Shown: piece by piece, positions 12,165-62,377 of the stretch
Layout: the number at the start of each line of letters is the position of its first letter
Position numbering within the stretch: the stretch's first letter is position 1
The notes under the pieces: model-generated
Database searches by the model: none
Told to the model about the DNA's origin: nothing
The model's input: the letters and a program-made list of their open reading frames with translations, nothing else
Position numbers and translations under genes: made by a program
Assembly: GCA_973895155.1 (NCBI GenBank)
Contig: OZ316891.1
Location: 25,419,899-25,483,898 of the forward strand
Reading direction: 5' to 3'
Source of the DNA: Marsupella aquatica
Lineage: Eukaryota; Plantae; Marchantiophyta
DNA: 64,000 nucleotides

Positions 12165-13691
12165 TTAATCTGATCTCATGCCGACTATTATTTTGGAAGC
12201 GTCCAAAATTGGGCGCCTGTTAAATTGCTCTACTAGATATCTATCTCCATGCCTCTGAATCACAGGGTCTTCCCATAGAGTATGATTATAATCATAATCT
12301 CTAAAAATAGATTTAACTGACCAATCAGGATAATCTCTTCCATTGGCAATGACAAGTGGCTCACAAGAGTTTGCTAGCTTGCTAAGATACAGAATCAGCA
12401 AGTTAATCAGGAAACTGTCGTCGACCGACCCAAAATATTTGGGCGGAAATAATGATCCAACAACAGGATCTAAACAAGCATGAAATGCATCGGATTTGAT
12501 AAGCATTATATTTTGCTGCAAATACGCCTTTGTATAAATTCCAACCTTCTCAAAACACTTCAAAAATATCCGCTTATTTGATGTCACCCCATCGCATAAG
12601 TAACAATGAGACTGATCCCAAATATACTTAAATGAAGCCATTTCCATCGCAGTAAAAATAGATGCTAAAATCTGATCTAAAAGGTTCTTCCCAAGAGAGG
12701 ACCAGATCCCTACATCAAAATTCTCAAAACAGAATCTCAAGAATTCGTGAAGATGAGGCCTTGGAAAAACGTATATATTCCCAATCCAAATTCCAATTGA
12801 GACCGCCATCTGTCGGGAATGCGGTGCAGTGTAACAGAGTAGATGCTCCACGTCTAAAACTATGAGCCCATTTTCTCTACTGCAATGAATCTCCTGTAGA
12901 GAAACACAAGAAGATGCATGAGCCCGTATGGATGTACTCACGCAAATGGTCGCGTCACATATTACAGAGACAACATCCTCTACACTCTGGCCATTGATAA
13001 GTGACGTCTGTTGAAGTGCTTGATAAGAACTTGATCCGCATGTCTCTACACGTACAGATGCTCCCATATATCCTCGTTCAGATCCCAATCGATCTCGATG
13101 TAGATTTCTAATCGACCAGATGGGATAATCGAACTTGTTAGCGAACGCAAGACAAAGCCTTGAATTTGATAGCTTTTGTAAATATGGAATGAGATCATCC
13201 CTCAAAAAGACATCATCCAACGATCCTTGAAACAACTTAGCGAACAATAATCCGCATACAGCTGTCTGGCATGTATGGGAAGGACAGGCATCAATCTGGA
13301 TTATATTCTCTGGTCGATAATCTTGAAACATATCACGTAGTCTCTCGATAGATTTGAAGACAACAGTCTTATAATTTTTCTTCACATAACCAAGATTCCA
13401 GCAATGATCCCGCGTGAACACATATATTAGCTGCAACAGGTTGGTGCTCGACAACACTTCTGAAAGTATCTGATAAACCAGTTTATCGTCGAGAATAGAC
13501 CAGACCATCACATCAAAATGATCATAACAGAATTTTATAAGATCATGAAGATGCGGCCTTGGAACGACACACAGAGATCCGATACGAATTCCGGGTGTCA
13601 ACTTGAGTTGAGGAGTATATTTTGAAACGGAGCACAGGAAGTTTTCCAGTCCTAAAACTAGAAGTTGACGCGACCTGCTCCACTTAGACAC
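12165..13691 (-). CDS. Element A cargo gene, last exon: two FCP1/NIF (HAD) phosphatase-like domains, catalytic DxDxT degenerate
   Basis: Two copies of L(L/I)VL..E.(F/L)LC...PRPHLH..(I/L).FC...FDV.(V/I)WS...W/F.(R/Q).HC...FK/LK...NI..I. Confidence 0.8.
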   Translation of the reverse strand: MSKWSRSRQLLVLGLENFLCSVSKYTPQLKLTPGIRIGSLCVVPRPHLHDLIKFCYDHFDVMVWSILDDKLVYQILSEVLSSTNLLQLIYVFTRDHCWNLGYVKKNYKTVVFKSIERLRDMFQDYRPENIIQIDACPSHTCQTAVCGLLFAKLFQGSLDDVFLRDDLIPYLQKLSNSRLCLAFANKFDYPIWSIRNLHRDRLGSERGYMGASVRVETCGSSSYQALQQTSLINGQSVEDVVSVICDATICVSTSIRAHASSCVSLQEIHCSRENGLIVLDVEHLLCYTAPHSRQMAVSIGIWIGNIYVFPRPHLHEFLRFCFENFDVGIWSSLGKNLLDQILASIFTAMEMASFKYIWDQSHCYLCDGVTSNKRIFLKCFEKVGIYTKAYLQQNIMLIKSDAFHACLDPVVGSLFPPKYFGSVDDSFLINLLILYLSKLANSCEPLVIANGRDYPDWSVKSIFRDYDYNHTLWEDPVIQRHGDRYLVEQFNRRPILDASKIIVGMRSD

Positions 13692-13822
13692 CTGTAAATG
13701 AACAATTTGATTCTCATATTATGCAATTGCAAACAACCATGCAACCGGGCGCGTCACTCCCAAAATATAAAGTTCAATTTCAATCAATTTATAAATAATA
13801 ATTGATAATAAACAATAAACGT

Positions 13823-14730
13823 TTACTTATTGGACTTATCCCGGGCTTCTATAGCATGGTCTTTTTTGGCAGATAAGTATTTCATAAATTCGTCAAACTT
13901 TTCTAAATGGTCTTTATTCCCCTGATTACGAATGATCACATTTCTTCTCCACAGATTCGTCTTATCAATATAATCTTTCTCAAGATTTTCTTGAGAGAAC
14001 GTTGGAATCCCATATCCACTAAGGAGCTCGCAGAATGTCAACTTGTCAATTGACATGTCGCATAGATATGGATATAGTTTCTTTCTAAAAAATAGGTCAT
14101 CATCAAGCCCAGAATATGCATCGGGATACAGCGATGAATAGAAGTCATTAAGGCTCGTCTTATATGCAGCATCATTGATAAGAATGACATTCTCGATGTT
14201 GTAATCTTTAATATCGGCGACAATGTTGGAGAGACATTTGACAAATAAGGGGATGTCATTATTATTCTTCCCAATAAGTCGAGTTGATTCTTGTTCCCAT
14301 ATAAATTTAATACGTTTCAAAACTTCGGGTCGAAGTATCAGCCTTACACAAGATAGAATATTCTATTTGAACATGCACGACCAGATTGCAATGTCGTATA
14401 GATCTGCCACCTTCTCAAGAAATTCCATTAAATCAGGCCTTGGATAGATAACCTTGTGCATCTGTCTCACACCCCTTGACCAAATGGGCATCCCAGGGCT
14501 GATCTTCTCTGACCAGATAAGTACCCAATTCAGATAAAAAATTACAAGTCTCTTATGAACCGGTGACTTCTTTGTCGATGGATTAGGCGCCATCTGTACC
14601 TGTGATTTTTGTGCCGAAGGGTTTCAAGAACGTACTAGAATGGTCTGTTTGTTTCCCGCCTCCGGACGATCACCGGACTTCCAGACTAGTGCCTTTGATA
14701 CTCGATCAGGGGGTTTTGGGATAGGCTTTT
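13823..14730 (-). pseudogene. Element A cargo gene exon: third FCP1/NIF-like domain (in-frame stop)
   Basis: KRLVIFYLNWVL...YPRPDLMEFL...YDIAIWS...FIWEQ...FVKCL...ENVILINDAAYK (ORFs 14363-14593, 13823-14320). Confidence 0.75.
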
Positions 14731-14885
14731 GTAAAACATTAAGAAATGAAAATAAGTTTATAACACGAACGGTCGCGTGACTACAAAGAGAGACACTGAA
14801 ATGAAGTGTATTACCTATACAAGACGGTCGTTCAGTGCTGGAATTCCGCCGGAAATGTCAATCATAGCAGCACGGATCCCGGTAA

Positions 14886-15622
14886 CTAGGTTACTTGCGG
14901 ACGTCGGCTTGCGGACGTCGGCTTGCGGAAGTCCATGTCAAATAACGACAAAACTATCTCCCGACGGAATTTCTCAATTTGATCCGCGGCAAAATTAATT
15001 TTGTTTTCTTGACACAACCACTTGGCGTATCTCAAGATAAACACACCACAACTGTGGCCATCACTCTGGTGAGGAATATCATTCCGATATATCCGTTCCC
15101 AACCTGAGAGATCCAAGTTGACACCAGTTCTCCAGCCAATTTCATCGGCGTAGTACTTCCCAACAATATCTAGCACCCCAGGATTTTGTCGATTATGAAC
15201 TAGAGAATCTAGGTACTGGAGCCGTTTCTCCTTCGGATACACAACTACCAATGACCAATGTTCTTTCACAGCATTGTGTACTGGAAAGACCAGTTTGTCG
15301 TATTCACTGATTTTTAGCGGAAATTCCTTTGTCCAAGCTGCTCTCTCCTCATCAAAAATGGTAGGATCCATGGAGAGAAGCTCAAAATGGTGTGTTTGGA
15401 AGAATTTGACAAGGTCTGACTTTCCAACTCTATCGAGAATCAGTTCGAGAAACTCAAATAAGCGTTAATTATATCATCGGTGAGCAACTCGCGCGGTCTC
15501 AGACACATCATATGTTTCCTCTTGATCGAGTGTTGTAAGAACTTGGTCAATAGCTCTTCCATATCCTTAGAAGGATCAAGGCATTGATCTATTCGACTAG
15601 CCAAATTTTTAAAAAACTGCAA
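14886..15622 (-). pseudogene. Element A cargo gene exon: Ulp1/C48 SUMO-protease domain
   Basis: CLRPRELLTDDIINAYL ... PVHN..EHWSL ... YLDSL ... PHQSDGHSCGVF; His-Asp-Cys triad present; frameshift near 15440. Confidence 0.9.
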
Positions 15623-15878
15623 AAAACAAAGATTTCAGTACGCCTTCAAATAACGTACTGAGGTTGTAGCCTAAGGGTTCTACCTCAGAAAACAGAAACA
15701 ATAACAAATCAATAATAAAATAATGACGTTTATAATAGAAACTTTAAGCTTATAGCTTGCAAATGACCTTTGGATTGGGTGGATCTGGCCTTTTCGCAGT
15801 TGATCTCTTGGGTGCCTCAATCGCAACAACATCCTTCAGCCCTCCTCAAGACCGCAGTGATCGCTCCACCGGACCAGT

Positions 15879-17132
15879 TTACAAAGGTTGGAGCGATGAG
15901 GCGGGAAGACCTTCAAATGGTTGTGGCATTTGATTCAGATATTCCACAATCTGGGAATCCGATTCCAAAATATCCGGTGCCACAATTTCTGCGCAAGTGA
16001 CCTCTGCAATATATCGGGGTCGAGACCACAAACCCGGTTGCGTCAAGTCAGCTGTTAGTCTCTTAACGACTTGGGCCGAGTCTGGTGCCAAAGACGTTCC
16101 CAGGTCTTTCACTCGATTCTCGGAAAAGCGGACATTATTGATGATTGTCTCCATTCTGGATGCAGTGGCAGTCTTCTCTTCGGTAATCAAAAGACCCTTG
16201 CAATATTGCAAAGCAAGGACTGCCTGGACTCGGAGCTGCTCCGATGAATATTTATTCCAATCATCCAATGAGACCGTACTTAAGGGTGGATCGTTAAATT
16301 CAAACTCCGGGCGAAGAAAATAGTCTAATATTTTTTTCTTTACTGCAATTGAGGGTGAAGAAGGCTTCTTCAAATTCAGCTTTATTTTTGGTAGACGTTG
16401 TGCCTCAAGAATAAGCAAAAGATCCTTGGCCCTCTTGGCCTCCTTCCTCGCTGCCTCCAGTCTTGCGGCTTCTTCTCTCTCCAGTCTTGCAGAATCGACC
16501 TTTTCCGCCTCCAACTTCTCCGCCTCCACCCTCTTCGGTCTTGCGGTCTCGTCCGCCATCCTCTCGACCAGCAGCCTCTCAACCGCCACACTCTCCACCT
16601 TGGCCCTATTTGCCTCTGTCACTAAGAGGACTCTCGCAGCCTCCGTTTTCTCAGCCTGGGCTTTCTCAGCCTCCGCGTTCTCAGCCTCTGCTTTCTCGGC
16701 CTTTGCTTCCTCCGCCTCCGCTTCCTCTGCCTGGGCTTTCTCCGCCTCCACTTTCTCCGCCTCCGCTTTCTCAGCCTAGGCTTTCTCAGCCTCCGCTTTC
16801 TCCGCCTCCGCTTTCTCAGCCTGGGCTTTCTCAGCCTGGGCTTTCTCAGCCTGGGCTTTCTTTGCCTTGGCTTTCTTTGCCTTGGCTTTCTTTGCCTCGG
16901 CTTTCTCAGCCTTGGTTTTCTTAGCCTGGGTTTTCTCAGCCAGGGCTTTCTCAGCCAGGGCTTTCTCAGCCAGGGCTTTCTCCGCCTCGGTTTTCTCCGC
17001 CTGGGCTTTCTCAGCCTGGCTTTCTCCGCCTATGCTTTCTCAGCCTGGGCTTTCTCAGCCTCCACTTTCTCCTTCTTCTTTGTGGCAGTTGCTTTTCTAG
17101 CTGCCGCCTTTTTCTTCTTAGCCTCCTTCTTT
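15879..17132 (-). pseudogene. Element A cargo gene exon: AEKA(Q/E) coiled-coil repeats
   Basis: 15-bp tandem repeats GCTTTCTCAGCCTGG (~16640-17070) encoding AEKAQ/AEKAE; continues from 30638 once the Gypsy is removed. Confidence 0.75.
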
Positions 17133-18481
17133 TGTGGTATGGGTGTCCCTGCAATTTTTTCTGGAAACTTGTTTATTTTTAGCATATCACAAGATTTACT
17201 TACACTTTAGACACCTTCCGGCCAACATTTACTTGTTCTGGACACTTATAGAAATATTTGACATCTCCGGCTTTCCTGACGATTCCTAGTGTACTTTGCC
17301 CGACGCTGTGACCAGCGCCCGTTTCTTTTACTCAAGACGCTGCGGAAGCGTCCAACCTCCTCATGACGCTTTTGGCAGTGCCCGACCGCCACCAAGACTC
17401 TATGAGGATTTCGACCGACGCTGTGGAAAGCGTCAGCTTCAACACACGACGCTGTGAGCAGCGTCCGTTGGTTTTACTTAAGACGCTTCTAGCAGCGTCC
17501 AGATTCTCCCGACGCTTCTAGCAGCGTCCGCTCAACACTTAGTTTTTGAAGTAGATTACTAGTAAAGTAGTATTCTACCACCCTTGTTGAAGTACTTATG
17601 CTGTGCTTCTCCCTTGTTTAGTTTTAAGCTTGGAAAGGCACGACTGTTCTTACCTCCTCCATTTTAGGATTCCAGCACTTATAAGACAGAGTAGAATGCT
17701 CATTTGAAGTAGAGAGAAATAGAGTTAATACTGTATTCAGAATTGAGTCTTCTGAATAGTTTTCTCCTCCTTCCATTGTAACAAGGCATGCTGTGAGTGT
17801 TTTGTATGGAAGTAAAGCTATATTGATTGAAGTTAAGATTGAATTCAAGAGATTCCTGTGGTGATTGAATTCAGTTGCAGATTTCTGAAACTCGTATTGA
17901 ATTCACTGCTAGGCTTGCTTGCAGAGTCGGGATTCGCTAGCCAATTCAAGAATAGTTAATGATAAATGAGAAGTAAATTCTGATTCTCAGAGTAGTTAGT
18001 ACTGTTGCTTTGATTCTGGAATATGGTTTAGAGTTTGACTGAATTGCGTATCGCTGATGTCAAACCATGTTGACGGCATTTTAAATCATATCATTCATTT
18101 GCAATCAGAAAGCTTCTGCTTCATCAGATTGAGAATTCCATTATCATTAACCTTTGTGTTTTGAAGAGTGAGATGGATGAATTATGAGATAGATTTCATG
18201 TCTATACTGAGCCCAAATCCTTTCTGAAGGAGTGGCAGTAGCTTGTAGTCTCTAAATCCTTACTCATTTCTTCTCTAATTCATAAATCAGAAGTTCAGTT
18301 ACTTTGTTGTTTGTTTATTCGATTTTTTTTATTGAGAAGTGAAGTCAACATAGAGCTCAAGACTCTAAATCACTCGGAGTGATAAAAGTTATACAATTCA
18401 TTCTGAAATCTGTTCTTAAAGGGATCGAAACCCTGGTTTTAGGTGAGGAGAGTCACTTTTGATACTTAGCACTATACGACA
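17133..18481 (+). repeat. Gypsy 5' LTR (1349 bp)
   Basis: Near-identical to 29250-30637 apart from a 39-bp indel. Confidence 0.96.
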
Positions 18482-18487
18482 TCTTTT

Positions 18488-18505
18488 TGGCGCCGCTGCC
18501 GGGGA
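18488..18505 (+). promoter_or_regulatory. Primer-binding site (tRNA-Asp type, as in Athila)
   Basis: TGGCGCCGCTGCCGGGGA just after the 5' LTR. Confidence 0.85.
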
Positions 18506-19699
18506 ACGAATTTAAGATTGAATTGACGTACAGGCAGTGTATGCCAGAAGGAGCTAGACGGGAGAGGAATTCACGTTCTACTATAATTGTGAAGATGCGT
18601 CATCACTCTAGTTAAAAAGATGAAGAGCTTCCATTTCGAGGTGATGCCGTACTCTATCCAAAGCGCCCCGGAAGCTCTCTTAAGAGTATTGGAAAAATTT
18701 GTGGTGCCAAACTTAAGAGAAGAAACCGCCCTCCCACCAGAAAAGGCCTCACAGAGAGGAGCTGTTGCTCGTCAAGTTGCTTTGGAGATAGTCGAAGACA
18801 CCAAAGACACTTTGAGTGACAAGTGAAGTTATTCTAACGTTGCTCGGGACGTATGATTTGTAAAATTGTCCAACCATCCTGGTTCGTGTGACCGATGCCA
18901 CCTATCCGATCTTTGGGAACATTAAGAATTAGGAATTTGAGGAATCGTTATGTTAATTCTTGGGTTCTGAGCCTGAGAGGGAGGAATGGCATACATTGGT
19001 TAACTATCACCTGGTGGGAAGATGAAAGTTTGCATTTAGTAATATTAAGGCTGAATGGTAGGATCACACAGGAGTGATATTTAGTCATTTCCATTCGGGA
19101 GTTAGCGGAAAGAATCATGCACCAGGAATTGCGTAGAAGATTAGGAAGGAGTTAGACGTCTGATTAGTAGGATGGCCTAGTGTAGCGTACCATGTGGTAA
19201 AGAAATTTCAGGGTGAAGGAAGTCGGAGATTATGGGGAACGCCCGGTTCCAGTAATCGCCACCGTAAAGGAGATAAGGAAGGACGCCGCGAAGAGCGTCC
19301 AATGCGATTCGTCCCAGAAGATTCCGCAAGTCAGGACGCTTCGAGTAGCGTCCGATCCCAGTGGACGCTGTGAGCAGCGTCCGGTGGAATCTGTGACGAA
19401 CCAACGTGCGCGACGCTTCTGGTGTGCCTTTCCGCGTCTCAACCTGAAGGACGCACCAGAGAAAACGAGGTTTTAGAATCTCGGCTGGTCACTGAAGGGA
19501 AGTATTAGCTACGGGATAGCAAGGGGGAGGAATCATGCAAGGGATGTTGAACGACACTACGGGAAGTCACTTTGAGGAAGCAGGTTCATATCTCCCGGAG
19601 TGGGGTGATAACGTCGCACCTAAATGGTGACTCCTTGCATAAAGACTCCTGAGGAGCGGGTCTGGTGTCTCAAAATCACCCGTGCTTGGAGAATGAGGG

Positions 19700-22600
19700 A
19701 TGTCTGAGGGAGATCCACCGAATAAAAGAAAACCTACCAAGACCTCCAGTAATTCGGATGCTGCAAAATTAGTAGTGACCCCTCGCACATTGTTACCCGA
19801 ATTCCAGTCACCAGGAGCACCTGCACCGGGTAGTGTGTGGAAACAAGTGGGATCTATTCAAGAGGCAAGTGGCTCTTTGGAAAGGCCCACGTCGACCCGA
19901 CCCCTGTTTGTAAATCTTCGTTCAGGTCCAAAACTTATTGGTTCTCAAAAGACCAAGCTCCGCCAGCAGACAGTACGTTCGGTGAACCAAATTGACTCTG
20001 GTGTGGATAGTACCACTGAGAGGGCCTTATCTCATACCGAAGGAAGAAATTTGGGTTTGCCCGAGAATACAGTTGCAGAATCGCTGGCCCAAGATAATTC
20101 TGTCGATCTTTCACAATTGGATAATCCAGAACCACTGAGTGAAGCCGGTGGTTCGTCTTCTAGTGAGACAAGCAGCAGTTCAGGCTTGGGCAGCCCAAAC
20201 CCATTTGCTACCCGATCAGCTCTTCCTTTCGTTACCCTCCTAGCTCCAACCACGATGGCTCGAAATAATGTGAGGTACGACCGGTTCTTCGGTACTTCCA
20301 AGGAGGATGCAGAGGTGTATTTGAAAGAATTTGAAGCTGCAGCTGCATCCAATGGACAGAGTCAAGACGCTGAAAAAGCCAATCTGTTTGGTGGTCTAAT
20401 GAAAAAGGGTGCTCAGAAATGGTATGACCGTTTTCCGGACAAGCAGGATTGGGGGAAATTGAAGGCTGCTTTCTTGGCCAAATATAAAGAAGAAGGAGCA
20501 GCTGCGCGTGCCTTTGCCCGAATCTCACATCTGCACATGAAGAAACATGGGTCTGTGAGGAAATATGCCGACAAATTATTGGATTTGGTAGATCAATATA
20601 ATCCAGCTACCTCGAAATCTACTATCAAGGACTGGTTTATTAACGGTTTACCCTCCAGGATTGCTCGTTACGTGAGACGAGAAGGTGGCACCACTTTGGA
20701 AGAAGTACAAGAGGCAGCCCAGAAGTACGTAGACTCGGAGATTTCAGAGAGAAAACGAGTTAAGAAGGACCTGAAGAAAGACAAAAGAAAGAAGAAGAAA
20801 ATGTCCAGGTCTAAATCTGACTCGGAGACGGAATCAAGTGGAAGTAGCACTAGTAAGGAGGACGAGAGTACAAATTCGAGCACTAGTGATAGTTCAAGCT
20901 CAAGTTCCGACTCAGAATCCGTTGCTCCTAAAAAGAAGAAATCCTCTGTAAAAGGGAATAATAAAGTTCCCAACCAGAAGAAGATGGATCGCATGATGGA
21001 AGAACTCTCTGGCCAATTGTCCAAGTTGAATGTCAATATCGCCGCGGTAAAACCAGTACGAAGGTTGCCTGCTCCCATGAGAATGAACGTATGGTGCACC
21101 CGATGCAGTCAGCAGGGCCATTACCCGAACGAGTGCCCCACATTACGAACCCCGGTGAATTATGTAGATGGTCAAGAAGAGGCTGAGGAGTATGAGTACG
21201 ATCCCACGTATACCGTCCAAACAGCACCCCCTGGACAGTATTTCCCACCACCTCCTGCTTCCAGACCGACTTGGGGACCACCTAAGCCCACTTTCAATAA
21301 ACCAACGTCAAGACCACCCATGGGACCCCCGGGAGGATACCCACCACGAGGAATGCCGCGTCAAAAAGGGGCTTGTTGGAATTGTGGCCAACCTGATCAT
21401 TATTCACCCCAGTGCCCTTATCCCAAACAGGAGGTGGGGTATACACCTGTCTGTGGGAACTGTGGAAAAGAAGGACACTTACCGGTGGAATGCCCGAATC
21501 CGGCTAAGCCTAGGCTGATGGTTCGATTTGCTCAAGAGCCAGTTAAAGAAGCAAGTCGACCTGAAGCCAAGATTCGGATGGTTTATTCTGAAGAGATGGA
21601 GCAATGCAGCTTCATTCAACATATGGATGTAAATCGGGTGGAATTAAAGCCAGATTCACTTTTTCATCAACCAGTATCCGGGGTGGTGCCTGATGTCTTG
21701 GTAAGTCATTTAGTGAAACCTGAAGTAGTTGGTATGCCGAATGATCGAGTTCAGAATCGGGATAAAGTTCTGACTAATATTTACGCAACTACTCGTTCGA
21801 AGAAAAAGGAGACCAAGAAGCACGAGCATCAGAAGGTCGCGAAAGCTCCCAAGGATGAAGGGCGCAAGCCATGTAAGGAAGGCCTCGACAAAGAAGACGA
21901 CCCTGCTTATGACCGATATGACCCAAAATACTTCTTGCCCGACATCTCTTTGGAAGTGAAAGACCATCTGGAAGAGCTAGTTAAGGAGCAAGTGCAATCT
22001 CCTAACCCACCAGTAGTAGTCAAAGCTAAAGAGCCACTGAAAAATCCAGGTTATGATATTGTTGAAGATGTCAAGAATCATCCTGCACATATCACCATTG
22101 GGGAATTATTACAGGACAATCCGGTTTATAGGCGACAGCTGAGGAGCCTCCTTGCAGGAAAACGGAGGAAGAAGAAGTTACCTTCGGTGGATGTGCTACG
22201 AACAGAGTGGGAGGACAAAGGACCGATGGAAATTGAGGTTCAAATCCAGGGGTGTGTCATTCGGAGAGTTCCTGTGGATGGAGGAGCCAGCGTTAATCTG
22301 ATTACACAGTCAGCAGCATTTAATTTGGGTTTCACTAAGTTTGAGCCCACTCCCAAGATTTTGCGCATGGCGGATCAGTCTCGTGTGGTACCCATAGGGA
22401 AGCTGACCAGAGTAGAAACTTTGATTGCTGGTGTCCCTTTTCTGTTGGATTATGTGGTTATTAATCCGGAAATACCATCCAGCTTTCCTGTTTTGTTAGG
22501 CCGACCATGGTTGTATAAGGCTCAAGTTCAGGTTAATTGGCAATCTCAAGAGCTTTCATTTGGGAAGCCTAAGGTGACTGTTAGTTGGGTTCCGGAACCA

Positions 22601-22753
22601 CATTTTGGAGAAACACAAACAGATGATGGGTACACCTCGGATTTTTCGACCTCTTCGCTAGTCCTGCAGCCATTGGAATTTGAACTGGAGGAAGTTCGTT
22701 ACTTGGAAGTTTATCTGTCTGATGCTCCCATAAAACCAACTAGGCCCTCCTGA
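19700..22753 (+). CDS. gag: Gypsy Gag-protease
   Basis: Capsid-like region, three CCHC knuckles (CTRCSQQGHYPNEC, CWNCGQPDHYSPQC, CGNCGKEGHLPVEC), protease VDGGASVNL...LLGRPWL. Confidence 0.92.
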   Translation: MSEGDPPNKRKPTKTSSNSDAAKLVVTPRTLLPEFQSPGAPAPGSVWKQVGSIQEASGSLERPTSTRPLFVNLRSGPKLIGSQKTKLRQQTVRSVNQIDSGVDSTTERALSHTEGRNLGLPENTVAESLAQDNSVDLSQLDNPEPLSEAGGSSSSETSSSSGLGSPNPFATRSALPFVTLLAPTTMARNNVRYDRFFGTSKEDAEVYLKEFEAAAASNGQSQDAEKANLFGGLMKKGAQKWYDRFPDKQDWGKLKAAFLAKYKEEGAAARAFARISHLHMKKHGSVRKYADKLLDLVDQYNPATSKSTIKDWFINGLPSRIARYVRREGGTTLEEVQEAAQKYVDSEISERKRVKKDLKKDKRKKKKMSRSKSDSETESSGSSTSKEDESTNSSTSDSSSSSSDSESVAPKKKKSSVKGNNKVPNQKKMDRMMEELSGQLSKLNVNIAAVKPVRRLPAPMRMNVWCTRCSQQGHYPNECPTLRTPVNYVDGQEEAEEYEYDPTYTVQTAPPGQYFPPPPASRPTWGPPKPTFNKPTSRPPMGPPGGYPPRGMPRQKGACWNCGQPDHYSPQCPYPKQEVGYTPVCGNCGKEGHLPVECPNPAKPRLMVRFAQEPVKEASRPEAKIRMVYSEEMEQCSFIQHMDVNRVELKPDSLFHQPVSGVVPDVLVSHLVKPEVVGMPNDRVQNRDKVLTNIYATTRSKKKETKKHEHQKVAKAPKDEGRKPCKEGLDKEDDPAYDRYDPKYFLPDISLEVKDHLEELVKEQVQSPNPPVVVKAKEPLKNPGYDIVEDVKNHPAHITIGELLQDNPVYRRQLRSLLAGKRRKKKLPSVDVLRTEWEDKGPMEIEVQIQGCVIRRVPVDGGASVNLITQSAAFNLGFTKFEPTPKILRMADQSRVVPIGKLTRVETLIAGVPFLLDYVVINPEIPSSFPVLLGRPWLYKAQVQVNWQSQELSFGKPKVTVSWVPEPHFGETQTDDGYTSDFSTSSLVLQPLEFELEEVRYLEVYLSDAPIKPTRPS

Positions 22754-29172: not shown

Positions 29173-29249
29173 TGAAGAACATGTCACTCGCTTCTGATTC
29201 AATTCGGTCATGTCTTGTGGGGACACGGCGAAATTTAAGTGGAGGGCTA

Positions 29250-43275: not shown

Positions 43276-43314
43276 CAAGAGTTATGCAAATGTTTGAAAG
43301 GTTTTAAGTCTAAC

Positions 43315-51417: not shown

Positions 51418-51694
51418 GGGGGACCGTGGCTTCCTGGATGATCTGACTGTTGAATGCCCTCTTATGTTGGGCTTGGGCTTGTGTTGGTGATTGATTTTCC
51501 CTTTTCCACTGTTTGGTGGTCGGGGGGCTGTGGGATATGCGCTGGTGATGTGTGCCTGTGCGCTGTGTGTTCGGCTTTGTTTTATGTCCCTTGGTCTGGC
51601 CTTCTGGTCTGTCTGTTTGCCCTCCCCGTGGGGCTTTTCGCGGGGGAACCAAAAATTATAAAAATGTTCCCATTCCAAGGAATATCGTTTTGCC

Positions 51695-54600
51695 TGTTTG
51701 TTTCAGGATATAGTTGATAATACTGCGGAGCCATATTGCCTCACGACATGCTTCATAGAGAGAGATGACTTCTGCGTGATTCGAGGAGGTTGTGGTCATG
51801 CTCTGTTTCGTACTCCTCCAGGATATGGCAGTTCTCCCTTGTAGGAAAACGTAGCCAGTCTGTGACTTCGAGTCCTGTGGGTCAAAGAGGTACCCCGCAT
51901 CTGCATAACCGATGAGTTCATCTGGGTTGTCGTTTGGGAAGAAAAGGCCCATATCTATTGAGCCTTGAAGGTAGCGGAATACCCTTTTCACACCGTTCCA
52001 ATGCCGAATAGTTGGATGTGCAGTGTGTCGTGCCAGTAAGCTTACTGCGAAGGAGATATCCGGTCTTGTATTGTTTGCCAGGTAGAGAAGGGCGCCAATG
52101 GCTGATAGATATGGCTTATCCGAGTCAAGGGCTGGTTCATTCTCCTGTCGTCGCCTAAACATGTCCTTAGCTGTGTCCAATGACCGCATCTCCATGGGTG
52201 TGGACACAGGATATGCATTGTGCATATTAAATTGTCGAATGATCTTCTTGGTATAGGTTGATTGACTAATAAATGTGCCAGTTTGCAGGTATTCAAATTG
52301 TAGTCCTAAGCAGTATGTCGGCTCTCCAATTTCTTTCATCTCGAAAATACTCTTCATTGTATTAATAGTTTTGTGTAAGAGTTGTGGAGTACCAAATAAG
52401 TTGACATCATCGACGTACAGGGCGAGGATGACGAATTCTGTATCGATGTGTTTGATGAATATGCACGGTGCGATATCGTTGTTGATAAATCCAAGGGTTT
52501 GCATCTCAGTTTTAAACTTCTGGTACCAGATGCGTCCACTTTGTTTTAACCCGTTGATGGATTTCAGGACTTGCACAACAAACGCCTGCTGTCCAGTCCC
52601 ACTTTTTCTGGGGTGCTGGAGTGGATCTTTATTTGTGTTGCCACTGCTCAACACTAGGCCTTTGAGCTTCTCATCTGGTACAATCTGTCGTATTCCCGAC
52701 TTCATGTCCTTACTCAAGTTCTGGAAATGTTTCCCTTGGACATGTTCTGTCACTCTTGCGAGTAGTTCTTTTGGGGCTTTCATGAAAATTTTGGAGTCTA
52801 GTACTCCATATAGGTACGCTGTTACAACGTCCATTAGTATATTACAGAGTTGGTGTTTTCAAGAGAAAGCTATAAGATACCTGAATGTAGTCACATCCAT
52901 AACAGGTGAATAGGTCAAATCATAATCCCTTCCCGGGATTTGAGTGTAGCCTTTCGCTACTAAGCGTGCGCGGTATCTAATGACATCTCCTTTGGCATTT
53001 CTCTTTCTGACAAATGTGAATCTGCTGTCTGTGTAATCATTGTTAGGTTGGACTTGTTTTAACGGGCCAAAGACATGCCTATGGATCAATGCATCCATTT
53101 CAGTGTTAATGGCCTCTTGCCACTGTGGCCAATCCGACCTCGCTTGTGCTTCTTTAATGGTTAGGGGGTCCGGAGTGTCAGTTGATATTTGCTGAGCTAT
53201 GTGATAGGCAAATTGTGCATCAACGACAGTGTTGGGTCTTTTATAGATTTGTCCGGTGTATTGGTATGGGATGGCCATTTCTTCATTATCTGGTACGTTA
53301 GATCTATCTGGTTCATTAGTAATAGCATGCATCATGGTTTCAGGTAGTACCTGATGAGGGAGTCTCTGGCGTGGTCGGGAGTCTCTAGATTCTGGTGGCC
53401 TACCTCTTTTTTTCTTTGCCGTGGTCTCCATTGCTGATTTTGTGGCAGGTTGTACTCGAGCTGGTACGTTTGCTGCCTCTACATGGGATCTTGTAACGTT
53501 GGCTGCATCATTAAAGGCGTCGGGGATCTTGTCCAACATTTCTTGGAGGTGTAGTAGTCTGCGGACTTCCTCATCCGCTCGCTTCGTTCGCGGGTCCTGG
53601 TTGAGTAATTTTCGACTGTTCCAATTTATGCTTTGTGGAGGTGTATCCCTCGTCAGTGGTTTTTCTGTAAGTAACTGGGGGAATGAATCTTCATAGAAGT
53701 GACAGTCTGCGTATCTGGCTTTAAATAGGTCTGCAGTGGTCGGTTCCAGGTAACGGATTATGGATGAGGAGTCGTAGCCAACGTAGATGCCTTCCTGTCT
53801 TTGAGGTCCTATTTTAGTGCGCTTTGGCCCAAGGATGGGGACCATCACTTTGCATCCAAAGACGCGCAGATGTGACAGATCAGGGGGTAATCCGAACGCT
53901 AAGTGGTGTGGAGTTTTGGTATTAAACGCTGAGGGCCTGTACTTCAGCAATGTGGTGGCGTGGAGGACTACATGTCCCCATGCGGAGAGGGGTAACTTGG
54001 AGTTCAGTAGGAGTGGTCGAGTAATCATTTGGATACGCTTTATAACAGATTCGGCAATTCCGTTTTGAAAATGGACGTAGGGAACTGAGTATTCTGTGTC
54101 AATTCCCGCCATCCAGCAGAAATCATCGAATGCTTTGGAGGTAAATTCCCCTGCTCCATCCACTCTCAGTTTCCGGATTGGATTTTCTGGGAATTGTGCT
54201 TTAAGTTTTAATATATTGGCTAAGATTCGTGCAAAGACTAAGTTTCGACTAGAAAGGAGGGATACTTGTAACCATTTAGTCGATGAGTCAATTATGGCCA
54301 GGAAGTACTTAAACGGTCCAATGGGTGGGTGTATTGGCCCACATACATCTGCGTTCAGGTGTTCCAAAAAATTTGGGATAGCATGGATCGTCTTCGGTAT
54401 TGGTGGTCTTGTAATCAGCTTCCCTTGAGAATAGGCTAAGCATTGTTGTTTCATTGTGGATGGGTTGACTCCTTGTGGGATTCCTCTGGAGTCCTTGATA
54501 ATTCTCCGGTACATATTTACTCCTGGGTGTCCCAGTTGGTAGTGCCATAGGTGTGTTATTTCTGATGATTCAGTTGTAGAATAATTTACAGTAATTTGAG

Positions 54601-55996
54601 TCGCATAGAGACCGGGGGGTATGAGTGGTAATGTCTCTTTAATATTGGTTCCATCATTGGTAATCTCCAAAATTTGTAGTGTGTCCTCTTCATCTGTCTT
54701 TGCCGTTCGCAGTTGGTATTTATTAGCGACTACGTCCCGAAAGCTTATCAAATTTCGAGTAGCTCGTGGGGCAAAGATTGCTGCATCAATATCAATAACT
54801 GTTCCTTGTGGGAATGTCACTGTTGCGGCTCCCTTACCTTCTTCTATCTGGTTTATACCCAAAATTGTGGTCATTGATCGTGTAGATGGGGTGATACTGT
54901 GGAAGTACTTCTTGTCTTTAAGAATTGTATGTGATGTTCCGCTGTCAATTATCCCAAGGTTGGGGTCATCTAATGAGGTGTGTATTGATGCTGGTGTTAC
55001 CATATGGGTCTCCTGTTCTTCAGGTTGTTGTGTAGGTGTTTCTTCCGGGTCCTGATAGTTAGCTAAGTCTTCCTCCATCTCCATATAGTTGCCTTCTGGA
55101 TTTTGCTTTAATTGGGCCCTTGCTTCTGTATGTCGTTTAGCTGCTTGGTCTGATGCCCATCAGTTCTTCTTTATGTGTCCTATTTTACCACACCGGTAAC
55201 ACAGCCTATCTTCTCTGATGTTATCAGGTGGTATGTTTCGTCTGCTGTCTTGGCCGCTTGCTCCTCGACCCCGTGAGTTGTATGAAAAACGGTTTCCTCG
55301 GCCTCTGGGATTTTGATTCCTGCTTCTGTCTTGATATCCGCCTCTGCCTCTTGATCTGCCTCGTCCCCTTTGGTTTCTCATATTATAATTTGTTTCTGGT
55401 TTTTGTGGTGGTGGGGCTGATCCTGCAGGTCGTTTTCTAGCGTTCTGCAGGGCAACGGTCTGCTGCTTCTCTTCTACCAGTAAATGTGCAATGAGGTCTG
55501 AGTAGACTGTAAATCTCATATTTCTGTACTGTGTACCGAGGGCTATATTTGCTTCTGGGAATGTGCTTAGTGTTTTGTCGATCATATCTGCATCAGGGAC
55601 CGGATGGCCACACAACTCCAATTGGGATGTGATTCTAAATAATGCGTTGTTGTAGCTGGCTATTGATGTGTAGTCCATCACTCGCAGGTTATACCAATCA
55701 CGGCGGGCTTCTGGGAGCCAGACTTCGCGCATATGGTCGAATCTTGATTTTAATTTATCCCATAGTAGGCGTGGGTTGACCTCGTTCATATATTGGGTTT
55801 TGAGTGGAGGAGCCAAATGCTGGCGTAATAAGAAAACGGCCTTAGCCTTTTGTTGTAGTGTCAGATTATTATCATTTATCAAAGTATCTTCGAGTTCCAG
55901 TGATGCAAAATATGTTTCTGCATCTACTGACCACGTTAGGTAGTTGTTGCCGTCTACTGAAAGGGCCTGAAAATGCAATTTCTCCAATGTTGCCAT
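51695..55996 (-). pseudogene. Copia gag-pol (gag, PR, INT, RT, RNase H start) with in-frame stops
   Basis: DGNNYLTW, CYRCGKIGH, IIDSGTSHTIL, WHYQLGHPG, DVCGPI, VDGAGEF, RARLVAKGYTQ, LYVDD, GYADAGY. Confidence 0.93.
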
Positions 55997-57342
55997 ATTT
56001 CTTGCACTTGTACTCGGGATTGTAATGCTCGGTGTGGTGGTGTATATATATAATACTTGGGTCTATCCAATTGGTAAATATATGCTTCGGGGAGTTATAG
56101 GTGCTGGTTCGAAGCACCTATAAGTCCAATTTCGGGATTTCACCGTAGCATTGTTGTTTCTAATTTGGCATAATGGCCATTCCCAAATCCTGCATTGGAT
56201 TCCTTGATGAAATAAGTTGGATGGAACAAAAAAATTAGACAAATCCGTCCTTACGGCAATGAAGATTGAGATCGCTAATGGATGCCTTCCTCATAGCAAT
56301 CTGATGTCTGGGCTCAATTTTTGCGTAAACTAGCATCACTTTTTAGGTGGGATTGTACTCAATTTTGGGGTAGTTAGGCGGTTACATAGGATTCCGGTGC
56401 CAAAAATGCAACATTCTTGGTAATTTTCTATGTAAAAACTATGATCTCTCAATATGTCTGTTGGGGCAGCCTAGGCAAAAAAAATCATTGAGCCAGTCGT
56501 GCTAATAACGTGTTGTAAACAAAGTAGATAATTGTAATCTTCCACACACTTCCATTATATCAAGGACTTATATAGTCCTAAGAGGTTAACATATTGGGTT
56601 AAGGTTAACCTACTCTAGTCTAGGGTTAAAGTAAACTATGGTTTATGACAGTGCCATCAACCACGATTGAACCTGTTTTGACCTTAAAGTGCAGAGGAAA
56701 TAATAGCCTGACTTTTGTTTGCGGACCTGTGGTCTCTGTTGGCATTGGAGGGAGAGGGATGAATACGGTCATTCTTGAGATGCACGATAAGTCCTGTTGG
56801 GTTAAAGTTAACCTTCTGTCAAAGGCATACTCCTCTGAATTCAATGTCGAATGGCACGCAAGTGGGTAATTGAGCATTTTGTCAATGGGATTTTTTCCAA
56901 AGACCTATGACACAAAGAAGTTGGTCGTCGGGGTAACTGGTATGCTTCCAGTCGACATTATGTATGGGTTTCAATATTTGAAACTCAACATGATGAAGCA
57001 CCAAGGCAATTTTTCTTTTGCAACGACCTGGACGTTAAGCAATTTACTTGAGAAAGCTGGATTATTATCGTCGGAGTCGGAGGAGCCTGGTGTTTTAATT
57101 GATAAGGATGTTGCATTTGCTCCCAAGTTTGATTTAGTCAAAGCAAAGCAATGGATAGAATCTTTGTCCAAGACGAGAAAGCTTCTAGCGGTGAATACAA
57201 ACCCTGTGCCCGAGAAAGCGCCAGAGAAAGCTCCAGAACCTACAACAGAGACCGCGGGAACTACAACAGCAACCTCTCAAAGAGCAGTGGGAAAACGAAA
57301 ACAAAGCCAAAGGAAACCTCCGGTTGAGAAGAAACTTCCGGT

Positions 57343-57500
57343 TGAGAAGCCGAGTACGAGAAGCCGAGTACGAGAAGCCGAGTACGAGAAGCCGAGTACG
57401 AGAAGCCGAGTACGAGAAGCCGAGTTGAGAAGCCGAGTATGAGAAGCCGAGTTGAGAAGCCAGTTGAGAAGCAACGTCTGGTTGAGAAGCCGAGTGCAAG
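57343..57500 (+). repeat. 14-bp tandem repeat GAGAAGCCGAGTAC within the exon
   Basis: About five perfect and several degenerate copies. Confidence 0.9.
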
Positions 57501-58282
57501 TGAAAGAGACCAAGACAGAAGAAGAAACAGAAAATTGACAGTGCCATCATGGATGATACTACAGAAAACCTGACAGTGCATTCACAAGATGTGGACGAGC
57601 AGTTGAACGCTCCTGAGGAGAAGAAGGTCTTAGAAGGTAATGAGGTATTGCAACAAATGGAGCAATATTATACGTTTGGGATCAATTCGATATTTTCTAT
57701 TCCTATAGACAGTATTTTCCCTGCGTCGGCAAGACTCTGTTATAGAATGTTGAATGCAGAACATGTAAAGGAGGTGGCCAATTCCATGATAAGAAATGCG
57801 GGGCATGAACCACACATAGCAGACTTGATTCCTTACACTACAAAACATAGAAACCTAATGCAGTATGACAGCACAGAATCAGATAGGAGGGACTTTGTAG
57901 CAGCCGTGAAAAAGGGCGAGGTTCAATTCCTTGCCATTAGCGGTCAACATTCGGCTAGAGCAGCCAGATGGATTCGAGAATGGGCAAACAAGGATGCCAA
58001 GCTGACAACATTGGCAAAAAAGCTGGAATTTTGAAAGTCAAGAATATTATCTCATCGAACACCATCATCAATATTAGTTGAGCATTCAATGCGATCTAAT
58101 GCGATCAATAGCACGATGGTGTTTGAGTCATGCTTCAAAGATACAGTCGTTCATGCTAGGCGACAATTTGTGGAATGTGGAAAACCTAGCCGGCCAAAAC
58201 ATGGGGACAACAAAACAAACGCTCAAGACAATCAAAAATTTCAGGTACGAAGTGTTACTGCTTGATGGGTACAATACCGTAG

Positions 58283-58676
58283 ATTCATGCACATTCAGTA
58301 GAATATTTCCACTGATATCTCCTAGTTTTGCGTTGGTCTGGGATGGTCCCAGTCCAAATGGATTCATGCACATTCAGTAAAATCTTTGTCCACTGATATC
58401 GTCTAGTTTTGTGTTGGACTGGGATGGTCCTAGTCCAAATGGATTCATGCACATTCAGTAGAATATTTCCACTGATATCGCCTAGTTTTGCGTTGGACTG
58501 GGATGGTCCCAGTCCAAATGGATTCATACACATTCAATAGATTATTTTTCCACTGATACTGTCTAGTTTTGTTCTGGACTGGGATGGTCCCAGTCCAAAC
58601 TAAATCATGCACTTTCAATAGAATATTTCCACTGATACTGTCTAGTTCTGTGTTGGACTGGGATGGTCTCAGTCCG
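58283..58676. repeat. Intronic ~80-bp tandem repeat x5, each unit containing the element-B palindrome
   Basis: ATTCATGCACATTCAGTAGAATATTTCCACTGAT...TTGGACTGGGA-TGG-TCCCAGTCCAA. Confidence 0.92.
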
Positions 58677-61242
58677 CACCTGAGTGCTATCAAACAATTG
58701 AGTTATGGAGAACTAACAGACTGTCCTTTTCAATTGTAGGATTGGTTGGCTCTTGCAAGAATGACCATGGGAAGGAAAGATTGTCGAAATGTTTACTGGT
58801 TACTGTTTGTGGACGATGCTCTTTTTGAGTTATGGAGTTTGGTATGCCAGTTGTGGTTGGATGGGAAACTTCCCGATGGAGCTGGGGTAGAAGGAAATGA
58901 GAAGTGTGAAAAAGCAGTTACTGTTGCCATGTTTCGTTGTTTTGATGGTGAGTTGATCTCACAACGAGACATCACAAGAATACTGACGCGGGTGAAGTCA
59001 GGAAAGGCATTGCTAAAGAAAGATGCCTCTAATAAATCAGACATGCCATCTATAGAGGAGTTGGCCAAAGATGTGAAGATCGTGCGGAAACTGAAGTCCC
59101 TTATTGAAGACTACTATTGCACCAAGGATGCGGTGAATTTCCCGGCAAATACTAATTGGGGGAAAGTAGTGGAGGTTCTTCCTACGCTAGCAATTGACTC
59201 AGAGTTCAGCAGGTGTCAAAGAGCCGCTGGCGAGGTCTATCTTGCTAACCTTTTAAAACCAAATCATACGCGGGAGAGCGCAATCTTGCCGACGGCATTG
59301 GCATTCCGCCTAGATGATATATACTGCCAGAAATTTGACCCTACCATGGGCTACATTTTTTAGCGACAATCTCATGAAGACCATTGATCCAGAGTCATTG
59401 CAAGAAGCTCCTCCGACCTGCCCTCTTGCCATTGTTGATTTTAGCCGGCTTCCGCAAAAACAATGGACTAAAGCAGAGATTCTTGTTCTCTTTGAATACA
59501 TTGTGGAGCTTCCACAAAATCCCACGATTGTTGTGACGATAACAGTTCATCCTGGACAACTTGCATTGAATGTCCATGGTGCCCTTCGTAAACTGGGACA
59601 AGAGAAAGCTTTGACCATTCACATTGAGTATGGGAGTTATTCTCAAGATGATCAACCGCACCCTCATGACTCATGTTGGGGTGGGGGGATTGAAGAAGTT
59701 ATCTTTGCGGGGATTTCTCGAGATGAAGACGTCAATTGAAATGAAGTTTTCAAGCCCAACTATCCAAAGCCAAAATTCTTGTATACTGCAAAGGATGTTG
59801 ATTACGAAGTATGCAAGATCGACAAGGGAAAGGGGAAGGCGAAGGAATCAGATGAGGGGACACAAAACAACAACCTAAAAGTGGTTTTGGACCCGGAAGA
59901 GGCCGTCAAGATTATGAATATGGCCCCTCGATTTGAGACAGTTGGCAGTCGCGGAGGGTGGGTTAATCCTCATGCCAAACCCACGCGGATGATCTGAAGG
60001 ATTATTGAATCCTTGTCAGAACCAGGAGATTTGGTTCTAGATTTTTTCTCCGATGGCCAAGTCATGAAGACATCATTTTTTTGCGATAGGGAATGCTTTG
60101 TTTATTGTGACTCTCACTCCGAGAGGCATTTTGTGGAAGCTTTTGCTTCCTACCTTTGCGAGAGAGTTCCCTCACTTAAAGCTCATTGTGAATCACTTGC
60201 TGAAAATTCTTGACAATGGGCTACCACTGTTGCGGCTGTAGCTATCGCTGTTGAATCCGATGGTTTTGAGTCTGAAGATGTTGCTGACAAAGTGGATGAA
60301 GGCGTAGAGGCATCAAAGGAGGCATATGTCAAGAATTTGGATGACCGTGTTGGTCAAGGTGAGCCTTATGATGTAGATGATGATATTGGACTTGTACCGA
60401 ACCGTTCATCTGGTTTAGATGACATCCCTCCGGGGCCCAATGAAGTTCAAGTTGATGATAACTTGGACAAGGATGATCCCAATCCATCAACGCCGGGAGG
60501 ACAGATGGAGCAACTGGAAGGAGCAAGGGTTGATACGTTTGATCATCTTTCTTCAACCAATCTGATCAATGAAGGCGCAACGAGGCTTGGAGATTCAAAT
60601 GAAGCTGAAACTAAAGAATTGACTCGGGGGGAGACCGAGGGGGAGACTGGCGGATTGCCTGACATTCCAATCAATCCAGGAGGAAATGCATCAACGGCTG
60701 CTGACAACCAGGCAGGTGCTTCAACTTGTCCTGACACACTTTTCAGCTTCTGATGACAAATTGGTGTTCGTTTGTTCACACTCGGGGAGTCCTATTGTCC
60801 TTTCGCTCTCAAAAAAAAGGAAATAGAGTTGGATCAACTGGATGGAGGTCATTGGAATGCGACGCACGATGTTACGTGTGGAAAAGTGGGCCAAATCGAG
60901 GCCAAGAAATATCATTGGATGTTGCTCCTTCAATTCTCAATAAGGAGGAGTATAAGAGTGGAGAATTGGGGTTGATAACTCCTGTTTGGACTTCACCTTA
61001 TTGGGTAGAACAAAGTACTTCAAATGTCAATTTTGAAATCCAACAGGAGCTTGGTGCTGACATGATTATTGATGAATACGGATCTCTTATTTTGGAATGA
61101 AATTCAGCCTTTGACTTTGTATTTATTCATATCAATCTAAAATACTTCTCGGTCTCACAGAATGCGCTCACCAATTAAAGTCTCCATATCCGTCTACACA
61201 TTGTGAGGCTTCTAAAAATGGTATGTAGGTTAATTTTCTTTT

Positions 61243-62377
61243 TTGTCAGCCATTGTCTTGTATTTTTGGACTGAGACAATCCTAATCCAAAGTTCACTTT
61301 TGGTCTTTTCTCTAAGAATGGTGTTTGGTGCACTTGCAGAATCGAGACCTGGTCCCCTCAAGCGGAAGTTGCTGATTTTGGACCTTAATAAAATACTTTG
61401 GGATTCTATTGAATTCCAAAGCAAGGGCACATCCAGGAATATTGTCACCTCAAGTGGAGTGCATTGGGATAGATCAAATGGAACTAGTCGCATGTATACA
61501 GAGAGGCCAGGGCTCCATGAGTTTCTAAAGTTGGTTTTTGACCGGTTTGACGTTGCAATTTGGACATGTGCTGGGATGCCGCGAACAGTGAAAATGTTGA
61601 ACATGACGTTCACAATTGAGGAGCGGTTTGAAACTGAAGTTTGTATTCACACAGGTGGAAACCTTTGACACAGGCATTCAAAGGCGTGACATTACAAATG
61701 GAAAGGCAAATGTGCTATTGAAGGATTTTCGGGTGGTATGGAGTGCATTTGGAAATCTATATGATGAAACCAACACACTCCTTGTGGATGACTCCCCCTT
61801 GAAGGCATTTGCCAACCCAGACATGACCGGACTATTTCCAGTGCCCTACACGCATGCCAATCGTGGAGACAATTTTCTTCTAACAATTCTTTGGCCATGT
61901 CTTGAGAAACTGTCACATGCAAGTGACATTCGTTGTTATCTTCTCCTAAACTCTCCAAAGTGGTCTCTATTGCACATTAAGAGAGACAAGGCAAAAAATG
62001 AGATTACTTATAATCAACTTAGTAAGAGATGTGCAGCAAAAATTTGGAACTCACAGTATAGGCATAGTGTGCTGGACCTCAATAGCAATGAGATTCCTTG
62101 GGCTGTGAAGCACCGTATATGTAGCTTACGTCCTGAGGTGGAACTTGACGATGCACTAGTCACCTCACTTGCTAGATCATTTGTAGGACGGGAATATTCA
62201 GGTCTGTATAGAGAAAATCCTAGACATTTTTGGTGGGAGATTATAGCAGTTAGGAACAACACCACCAAATTTCATCTCCCTGAAGATAAAGGGAGTTGCA
62301 ACCGTGACATTAGGGTAGATAGTAAAGGAGACAAAGGCACATGCTCAAATAAATATTGTAAGGAACACTTTGTTTAG
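61243..62377 (+). pseudogene. Element B FCP1/NIF phosphatase-like gene (frameshift ~61620)
   Basis: RKLLILDLNKIL...ERPGLHEFLK...FDVAIWT...LLKDF...TNTLLVDDSPLKAFANP...LFP. Confidence 0.88.

Follow-up and report, generated by a model that had tools for sequence, protein, structure and literature searches.

Two dead copies of a ParB-like transposon cargo gene family in nested elements of a liverwort genome, each element with a private palindrome

The window analyzed here is a 64,000-nucleotide stretch of the liverwort Marsupella aquatica (contig OZ316891.1 of assembly GCA_973895155.1, positions 25,419,899 to 25,483,898, forward strand), and all coordinates below are those of the window. It contains two large elements, termed A and B, each carrying a gene for a ParB-like protein. 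Profile comparisons indicate that these genes are dead copies of a single conserved family, carried as transposon cargo in seed-free land plants. Each element has an internal palindrome of its own, located before genes and in cargo-gene introns. Our best reading of the whole, to which we give close to an even chance, is that the cargo protein, predicted to carry on the B side a non-catalytic methyltransferase fold, probably binds the palindrome of its own element, which it would keep active rather than methylate.

Two nested elements and their cargo genes

Element B is a true cut-and-paste transposon of the terminal inverted repeat (TIR) type. It has identical 27-bp terminal arms starting with GATCAG, a 2-bp target-site duplication (TSD), CT, and an empty site, represented by contigs in two runs (X2 and X3) that go from 34595 directly into the right flank. 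It sits inside element A, where it splits an F-box-like open reading frame (ORF) that reads through once B is removed. A preliminary description of this DNA had recognized two different large elements, but missed that each has its own internal palindrome; the two are nested. Its view that the genes form a conserved family with an intron and travel on repeats is supported, B being a TIR transposon and A a multicopy repeat. Along A, F-box-like ORFs are followed by the cargo gene, acidic and EAAR/AEKA repeats, a Ulp1 domain, three FCP1-like domains, and a CACTA-type fragment. The features of both elements are listed here, with Pfam expect values (E) where available.

Element B:
34596..62750, TIR DNA transposon, 28,155 bp with nested insertions, ~11.6 kb proper
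38131..40637, minus strand, putative transposase gene (ORFs 40637-39159 and 38985-38131), its 3' part lost at an insertion resembling a terminal-repeat retrotransposon in miniature (TRIM)
40693..41660, B palindrome array 1, 27-bp period, 25 matches, upstream of the transposase
42988..43275, B palindrome array 2, 9 matches, upstream of the B cargo gene
43315..58244, plus strand, cargo exon 1 (~43315-43469 and 56651-58244), interrupted by a Copia element
58245..58739, plus strand, conserved phase-0 intron with five copies of the B palindrome
58740..61100, plus strand, cargo exon 2, with several stops and frameshifts
61319..62377, plus strand, FCP1/NIF-like ORF (Pfam NIF, E 3.6e-7 and 1.4e-6), frameshift at 61627 in the window copy

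Element A:
63628-63122, and 63111-62753 continuing at 34595-34397 across B, minus strand, F-box-like ORFs upstream of the A cargo gene (Pfam F-box, E 0.005)
33083..34321, minus strand, cargo exon 1, N-terminal domain and ParB-like domain (~33700-33100, motif EGQHT), three in-frame stops
32990..33082, minus strand, conserved phase-0 intron with one A palindrome inside (33026-33041)
31264..32989, minus strand, predicted exons 2-3 (intron 31685-31586), a supported helical domain and an alpha/beta region at the methyltransferase position
30638..31135, minus strand, predicted exon 4, with an acidic tract followed by EAAR repeats, interrupted by a Gypsy element and resuming at 17127 as AEKA repeats
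14889..15464, minus strand, Ulp1 (C48) SUMO protease domain (Pfam Peptidase_C48, E 3e-16)
12168..14600, minus strand, three copies of an FCP1/NIF-like domain, with YLNWVL, GLENFL, and DVEHLL in place of DxDxT
11395..12018, minus strand, CACTA TnpD-like C-terminal fragment (Pfam DUF4216, no better than E 0.11), preceded by an A palindrome and adjoining the FCP1 genes of A
11979..63743, eight dispersed A-side copies of the A palindrome, at 11979, 12940, 14763, 31171, 31210, 33026, 34372, and 63728

The B cargo gene is oriented opposite to the putative transposase gene. Its first exon encodes an N-terminal beta-rich domain, a basic linker, and the ParB-like domain (~57630-58220, motif SGQHS), the piece before the Copia insertion aligning only weakly (best E 0.4). 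The second exon encodes, in order, a helical domain (58740-59340), the methyltransferase-like fold (~59330-60200), an acidic tract, and a conserved C-terminal piece (60735-61097). All motifs quoted in the preliminary description were found at their places and on their strands, and the extents of both genes had to be revised. The B ORF, taken to end at 60753, runs beyond a frameshift to 61097, with 40% identity to the C terminus of the Calypogeia gene model P0007. The A gene, thought to end at 31264, is predicted to continue into acidic/EAAR repeats and across the Gypsy insertion, and the Ulp1 domain may be its end. Both window copies are pseudogenes with stops and frameshifts. At the breaks at 59739, 60211, 60738, and 61627 in B and at 33169, 33148, and 32781 in A, the bulk of other copies differ from the window. 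The two tandem F-box-like ORFs (62701-63628 and 34397-34595) constitute additional cargo of element A.

The transposase identity of ORFs 38131-40637 is suggested by their position, the TIRs, and transposase-like motifs. The match to Pfam DUF7869 is weak (E 0.0016, 18.5 bits, under the cut-off of 26), and our literature search found no paper on DUF7869. Ahead of the DUF7869-like part, ORF 40637-39159 contains three repeated beta-rich units without a Pfam match, which we take to be TnpA-like. EnSpm/CACTA termini start with CAC, and Sola1 elements have a 4-bp TSD. With GATC termini and a 2-bp TSD, the B transposase fits neither group, although the 2-bp TSD would suit some EnSpm/CACTA members. The ends of B also carry a 22-bp subterminal repeat, distinct from the palindrome and common to an element of ~0.35 kb at 5700-6042. 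This element, resembling a miniature inverted-repeat transposable element (MITE), has the TIR and subterminal repeat of B, an apparent 2-bp TA duplication, and no palindrome.

A and B had been described as colinear, highly diverged proteins. Their ParB domains are identical at 27 of 181 aligned positions (15%), a direct tblastn comparison gave no match at E<1, and shallow profiles were not significant (B-only profile, iE 3.1; hhalign, E 0.0013, probability 18). The kinship becomes decisive only once more relatives join the profile: 22 sequences, each scoring below 30 bits against both A and B, yielded a profile that matches A with E 1.4e-26 and B with E 4.8e-30, the next best match having E 0.089. 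These sequences were picked from 92 long domains recovered in a search seeded with A and B, and the test is thus not wholly independent. A common family is therefore supported by this profile, but not by pairwise comparison.

Among 1.84 billion representatives, a profile made from four sequences matched 164 at E<=0.001, 79 of them at E<=1e-10. Twenty representatives were looked up, none labelled algal, and the ten with an organism name, from Riccia sorocarpa (six), Ceratodon purpureus (one), Adiantum nelumboides (two), and Diphasiastrum complanatum (one), span liverworts, moss, lycophyte, and fern. The nearest named relatives are proteins of Calypogeia fissa, with 57-59% identity in the ParB part. 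No relatives were detected in viral contigs, prokaryote genomes, or phage records, nor, for the ParB part, in JGI metagenomes, by searches that depend on short exact words or on BLAST-level similarity. In four public runs, contigs match both regions in several identity classes (237-3453 per run for B and 28-1228 for A, which are not copy counts). In a quick tree, the family divides into many deep clades, and the midpoint split separates A from B.

The phase-0 intron noted earlier at the same position in both genes is borne out. A GT..AG intron follows the ParB-like block after PNWK in A (33082-32990) and after QKFQ in B (58245-58739), with both exons terminating in the same alignment column. 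P0007 reads across this junction, and the independent locus L001 carries the same intron. Of 68 ORFs halting just past the ParB domain, 52 end in aromatic-x-V, a loose pattern resembling a donor site. The intron is thus old. Homology extends beyond it, as the helical block after the intron of A scores 24.8 bits against the family, the best of 500 shuffles reaching 8.8. The A-type and B-type N-terminal domains have no detectable similarity.

Between B and L001, synonymous sites are saturated (pS 0.84 and 0.78), and pN is lower (0.45 and 0.50). Because of this saturation, the comparison yields no numeric ratio of nonsynonymous to synonymous rates (dN/dS). Together with the family profile search, these values point to long-term constraint on the protein over moss-liverwort-fern distances.

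Predicted folds of the cargo protein and its partners

The ParB-like assignment of the preliminary description gained structural backing. A model of the A-type relative P0009, built on a 97-sequence alignment, has a predicted local distance difference test (pLDDT) score mostly >90 over residues 220-370. Its top eight VIA rows are all ParB/Srx (PadC, Z 8.0, root mean square deviation [rmsd] 3.1, 99 aligned residues; KorB, Z 8.0), as are its top Foldseek rows (ParB, E 2.1e-3). The scores are modest and the rows agree, and the domain is predicted to have a ParB/Srx core fold. By sequence, ParB profiles gave no solved-structure match, and no Pfam ParB family was above cut-off (ParBc_2, E 0.021 in A; DndB, E 0.04 in one of 97 members). 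In the ParB CTPases ParB, Spo0J, Noc, and KorB, the nucleotide-binding motif GxxR contains an arginine. The family has GQH[ST] instead, with arginine in 0 of 129 motif matches, and this replacement makes ParB-type use of cytidine triphosphate doubtful. Among viral structures, the best match of the ParB-like model was BFVD E3T4G1, an uncharacterized Cafeteria roenbergensis virus protein (E 1.8e-4), and other giant-virus proteins rank too. The helical domain was modelled confidently in L001. The A-type N-terminal domain (33700-34250; residues 32-139 of P0009) was modelled as beta-rich, and its weak PH/PTB-like matches, with Z up to 3.4, are too weak for a finding.

A methyltransferase-like region had been proposed for both proteins; it holds up for B and lacks statistical support in A. 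In B itself, Pfam N6_N4_Mtase (PF01555) matches with E 5.9e-6 over 28 residues, and M.RsrI was matched by profile (E 1.8e-5). The model of the B-type relative L001 retrieved beta-class methyltransferases in its top 11 rows, all with Z 13 or more (CcrM, Z 16.1, rmsd 4.0, 209 aligned residues), and matched M.RsrI with E 2.9e-7. The B side is thus predicted to have a beta-class N4C/N6A methyltransferase fold with the permuted motif order IV...X-I-II. Its catalytic motifs are degenerate. Motif IV (DPPY; generally (D/N/S)PP(Y/F/W)) is absent in all 13 readable members, a count excluding four further long gene models without that region, and the strand ends in D-F/L-x-R or similar (DFSR in B). Motif I, DFFSDG in B, reads FSGG(Q/V) or is more degenerate instead of FxGxG, its last glycine being replaced, and the acid of motif II, at the M.RsrI/MboIIA position, is absent in 10 of 10 members. 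Judged from these residues, the domain is likely catalytically inactive. A has FDPSS at the place of motif IV and an alpha/beta region colinear with B in the alignment; this region scored no better than shuffles and failed hidden Markov model (HMM), hhalign, and blastp tests, so that a methyltransferase domain in A is unproven at the sequence level.

A comparable picture emerged for the downstream FCP1/NIF domains. The catalytic motif of FCP1/SCP phosphatases of the HAD type is DxDx(T/V). The NIF domain was matched in the window's four FCP1-like domains, as the preliminary description had it, but DxDxT is present in none of them, B having DLNKIL in its place. The link to the cargo gene recurs in moss, fern, and lycophyte: of 89 relatives scanned, three have a NIF domain within one gene model with the cargo protein, namely those of Ceratodon (just under cut-off), Adiantum, and Diphasiastrum, the last with DLDDIL and hence both aspartates kept. 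Automatic gene models may fuse neighbours; even so, a NIF domain and the cargo protein in one model show adjacency. Since the methyltransferase and FCP1 domains are both without catalytic motifs, an active DNA-methylating module is unlikely. The A-side Ulp1 domain retains the His/Asp/Cys triad and the oxyanion glutamine, as read in the ORF.

Private palindromes and their possible role

The B palindrome is 25 bp long, TTGGACTnGGA-nnn-TCCnAGTCCAA, and has 41 matches at up to three mismatches, with 0 expected, all of them within the 11.6 kb of B proper. Apart from the two arrays and the five intron copies, single copies occur at 60463 and 61266, one in the acidic tract and one before FCP1. The A palindrome, ACGCG-N6-CGCGT, is CG-rich and has 11 matches where 0.14 would be expected. 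Eight of them fall in A-side DNA and the other three in nested retroelements; B proper has none. One site lies 50 bp ahead of the start codon, one inside the conserved intron, and two within the third intron; a mismatch in the copy at 31210 (at 31221) is absent from the bulk of other copies.

Based on these pairs of protein and site, we speculate that a dimer of the ParB-like protein probably recognizes the two-fold palindrome through its ParB and helical parts. The dead methyltransferase fold would then serve as a surface for binding DNA or a partner, and the FCP1-like pseudo-phosphatases and, in A, the putatively active SUMO protease would act on the palindrome-bound chromatin. The net effect might be sequence-specific anti-silencing in the manner of VANC, by which the element stays transcribed; we rate this outcome at somewhat below an even chance.

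Several observations weigh against such a role. The ParB match is middling by the tool's scale (Z 8.0 at best, Foldseek E above 0.001), and no DNA-binding helix-turn-helix was identified in the helical domain, which was barely tested because the structure-search rows were filled by the methyltransferase domain. The B-side methyltransferase profile misses A and the A-clade members P0112 and P0101, yet finds the fern protein P0103 (18.5 versus 8.0 bits). Both palindrome patterns were defined after inspection, the 41 matches of B amount to about five independent sites because most copies are tandem, 3 of the 11 A matches lie in nested retroelements, and the L001 intron, by eye, has no such palindrome. 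The ends and transposase of element A were not found within the window, despite adjoining CACTA-type fragments. Both window copies are broken, and the best-supported differences in that of A are mostly C-to-T/G-to-A, which suggests that this copy was methylated.

The protein might instead bind the palindromes in the service of transposition, through pairing, looping, or transposase loading like CACTA TnpA or ParB on parS. We consider this unlikely, even though its evidence is common with that for anti-silencing up to the final step, including the predicted ParB/Srx fold and a palindrome array directly upstream of the transposase gene. The palindromes are internal, whereas the ends of B carry the different 22-bp subterminal repeat, and the 0.35-kb MITE sharing the TIR and subterminal repeat of B does without a palindrome. 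The partners, too, with Ulp1, FCP1-like, and methyltransferase domains, are of the chromatin or transcription type. Less probable still is that the gene, as selfish baggage, has a role with no connection to the repeats, the palindromes then being common minisatellites or small mobile sequences. Tandem arrays arise easily, but within the window each motif is limited to its own element or strongly enriched there, single copies turn up again in introns and ahead of genes, and the protein family is constrained over the distances described above.

An active, non-canonical N4C/N6A methyltransferase marking its own element, a hypothesis published for algal proteins (PMC12477816), would agree with the complete beta-class fold of the L001 model and with what the B side has kept, the first aspartate of motif IV and a large part of motif I. 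It is improbable here, given the loss of PPY, the motif I glycine, and the motif II acid, parts of the domain missing from several gene models, and divergence of the region beyond detection in the A clade. The catalytic-motif loss speaks against the published view that proteins of this type methylate the element carrying them, at least as far as land plants are concerned. That A and B were captured from a host gene present in single copy, the situation that the preliminary description regarded as fatal to its proposal, is very improbable and largely refuted. A spliced gene with a conserved intron would fit. Against it stand six or more divergent Riccia sorocarpa models in the ten named look-ups, three Calypogeia loci, hundreds to thousands of contigs in several identity classes on both A and B, and the deep clades separating A and B.

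In favor of sequence-specific anti-silencing is a precedent in VANC of Arabidopsis VANDAL elements, the only well-shown case among transposons, which binds element-specific short motifs in non-coding tandem repeats, with related elements differing in motif and protein (PMC10398659). The palindromes resemble these motifs in being short, element specific, and located in non-coding tandem repeats. The activity of VANC was shown experimentally, whereas that of the module described here is putative, and Pfam scans revealed no homology between them.

The combination had been thought undescribed, which does not hold, as ParB-plus-methyltransferase transposon cargo in brown algae and ParB genes beside inverted-repeat arrays in red algae are already known. 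According to the accessible portions of these reports, the function of such accessory genes was not experimentally tested there. An accessory gene of Ectocarpus Sola1-1_Ec32 encodes a protein of 1104 amino acids with ParB-like and N4C/N6A methyltransferase domains, for which binding and modification of the element that carries it have been suggested (PMC12477816). As described, it shares with our family the fusion of a ParB-like domain to a prokaryote-type amino-methyltransferase domain, residence in a giant DNA transposon, and, with B, an orientation opposite to the transposase. The family differs from this brown-algal gene, compared by description only, in its land-plant hosts, the 2-bp TSD and DUF7869-like transposase of B, the loss of catalytic motifs, and the FCP1-like/Ulp1 partners. 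In red-algal (Bostrychia) Plavaka (EnSpm) elements, the ParB-like accessory gene of PAG2/PAG3 likewise lies beside tandem inverted-repeat arrays, with a PF01555 methylase in the same element (bioRxiv 10.1101/2025.02.11.637652). Again by description, ParB is there fused to a putative 2-oxoglutarate oxygenase and the methylase to SET in separate genes, whereas here one gene holds both and palindromes also occur in introns. What is new, then, is a branch of such cargo in land plants, its pseudo-enzyme state, and the association with FCP1 and Ulp1. Our literature search found no land-plant description of the family; most subscription papers, Repbase reports, supplements, and the 2011 Iyer chapter (green algae) were outside its coverage. 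Nor is the family described in the parts available to us of PMC4738411, 10.1101/2021.02.12.428880, 10.1101/2021.12.13.472469, 10.64898/2026.05.21.726589, and PMC6431247.

In fold, the family resembles bacterial and phage ParB/parS, ParB-methylase fusions, and beta-class methyltransferases such as M.RsrI, CcrM, PvuII, bdelloid N4CMT, and Marchantia DN4MT1; it departs from them in having GQH[ST] rather than the arginine motif, no (D/S/N)PP(Y/F), and no sequence match in phage and prokaryote collections. KAONASHI is a plant DNA transposon carrying Ulp1. As in KAONASHI, an intact C48 protease lies here inside a DNA-transposon-like repeat, with the difference that it follows a ParB-family gene. For MpDN4MT1, TSPPY is reported and, in the portion accessible to us, no ParB is described (10.1101/2021.02.12.428880). 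A feature search of the ESM Atlas with the A-type ParB domain ranked DUF3723-containing clusters first (score 0.95). DUF3723 proteins of fungal Starships are, like our family, conserved cargo of large mobile elements (bioRxiv 10.1101/2021.12.13.472469). The 97 aligned family members, however, include no Pfam DUF3723 match, and a search for papers on DUF3723 together with ParB found none, so that this is a lead only. If it holds, it also concerns a core gene of the fungal Starships that still lacks an explanation.

Taken further, seed-free land plants could host an exchangeable parS/ParB-like self-recognition module in large DNA transposons of different superfamilies, in which a ParB-type clamp reads a private palindrome and brings pseudo-enzyme decoys (dead methyltransferase and dead C-terminal domain phosphatase) and a SUMO protease against silencing. 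The module, the algal proteins, and fungal DUF3723 would then belong to a single pan-eukaryotic class of anti-silencing factors, programmable by evolution. We regard this extended reading as a whole as doubtful. The two very distant protein versions, each with a candidate binding site, provide two testable protein-site pairs for self-recognition, and the cargo gene has relatives in Riccia and in a moss, Ceratodon.

Other insertions in the window

The Gypsy long terminal repeat (LTR) retrotransposon that cuts the A gene (17133-30637) has the TSD TCTTT, essentially identical LTRs with one 39-bp indel, and an extra 732-amino-acid ORF after pol; it is a very recent insertion. The Copia element within B cargo exon 1 (43470-56650) has the TSD GTGCC, identical 140-bp LTRs, and a nested long interspersed nuclear element at ~45314-51414.

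Positions 1-7730 form a degenerate CACTA-type region with DUF4218 (E 1.9e-26), weak Transposase_24, and a Pro-rich repeat ORF at 674-1270. The TnpD-like fragment at 11395..12018 resembles, by eye, the segment 2010-2591 behind this DUF4218. The observed/expected CpG ratio is 0.27 in 1-7730 versus 0.76-0.87 in the cargo of A, and CpG depletion per region is too mixed for use. Finally, 7806-11172 and 34790-38139 are two copies, 98.4% identical and in opposite orientation, of a 3.3-kb non-autonomous LTR element with 143-bp LTRs, resembling TRIMs or large retrotransposon derivatives (LARDs). Within it lies a captured fragment of an ABC transporter (ABC_tran, E 2.5e-13), which resembles STR-type ABCG.

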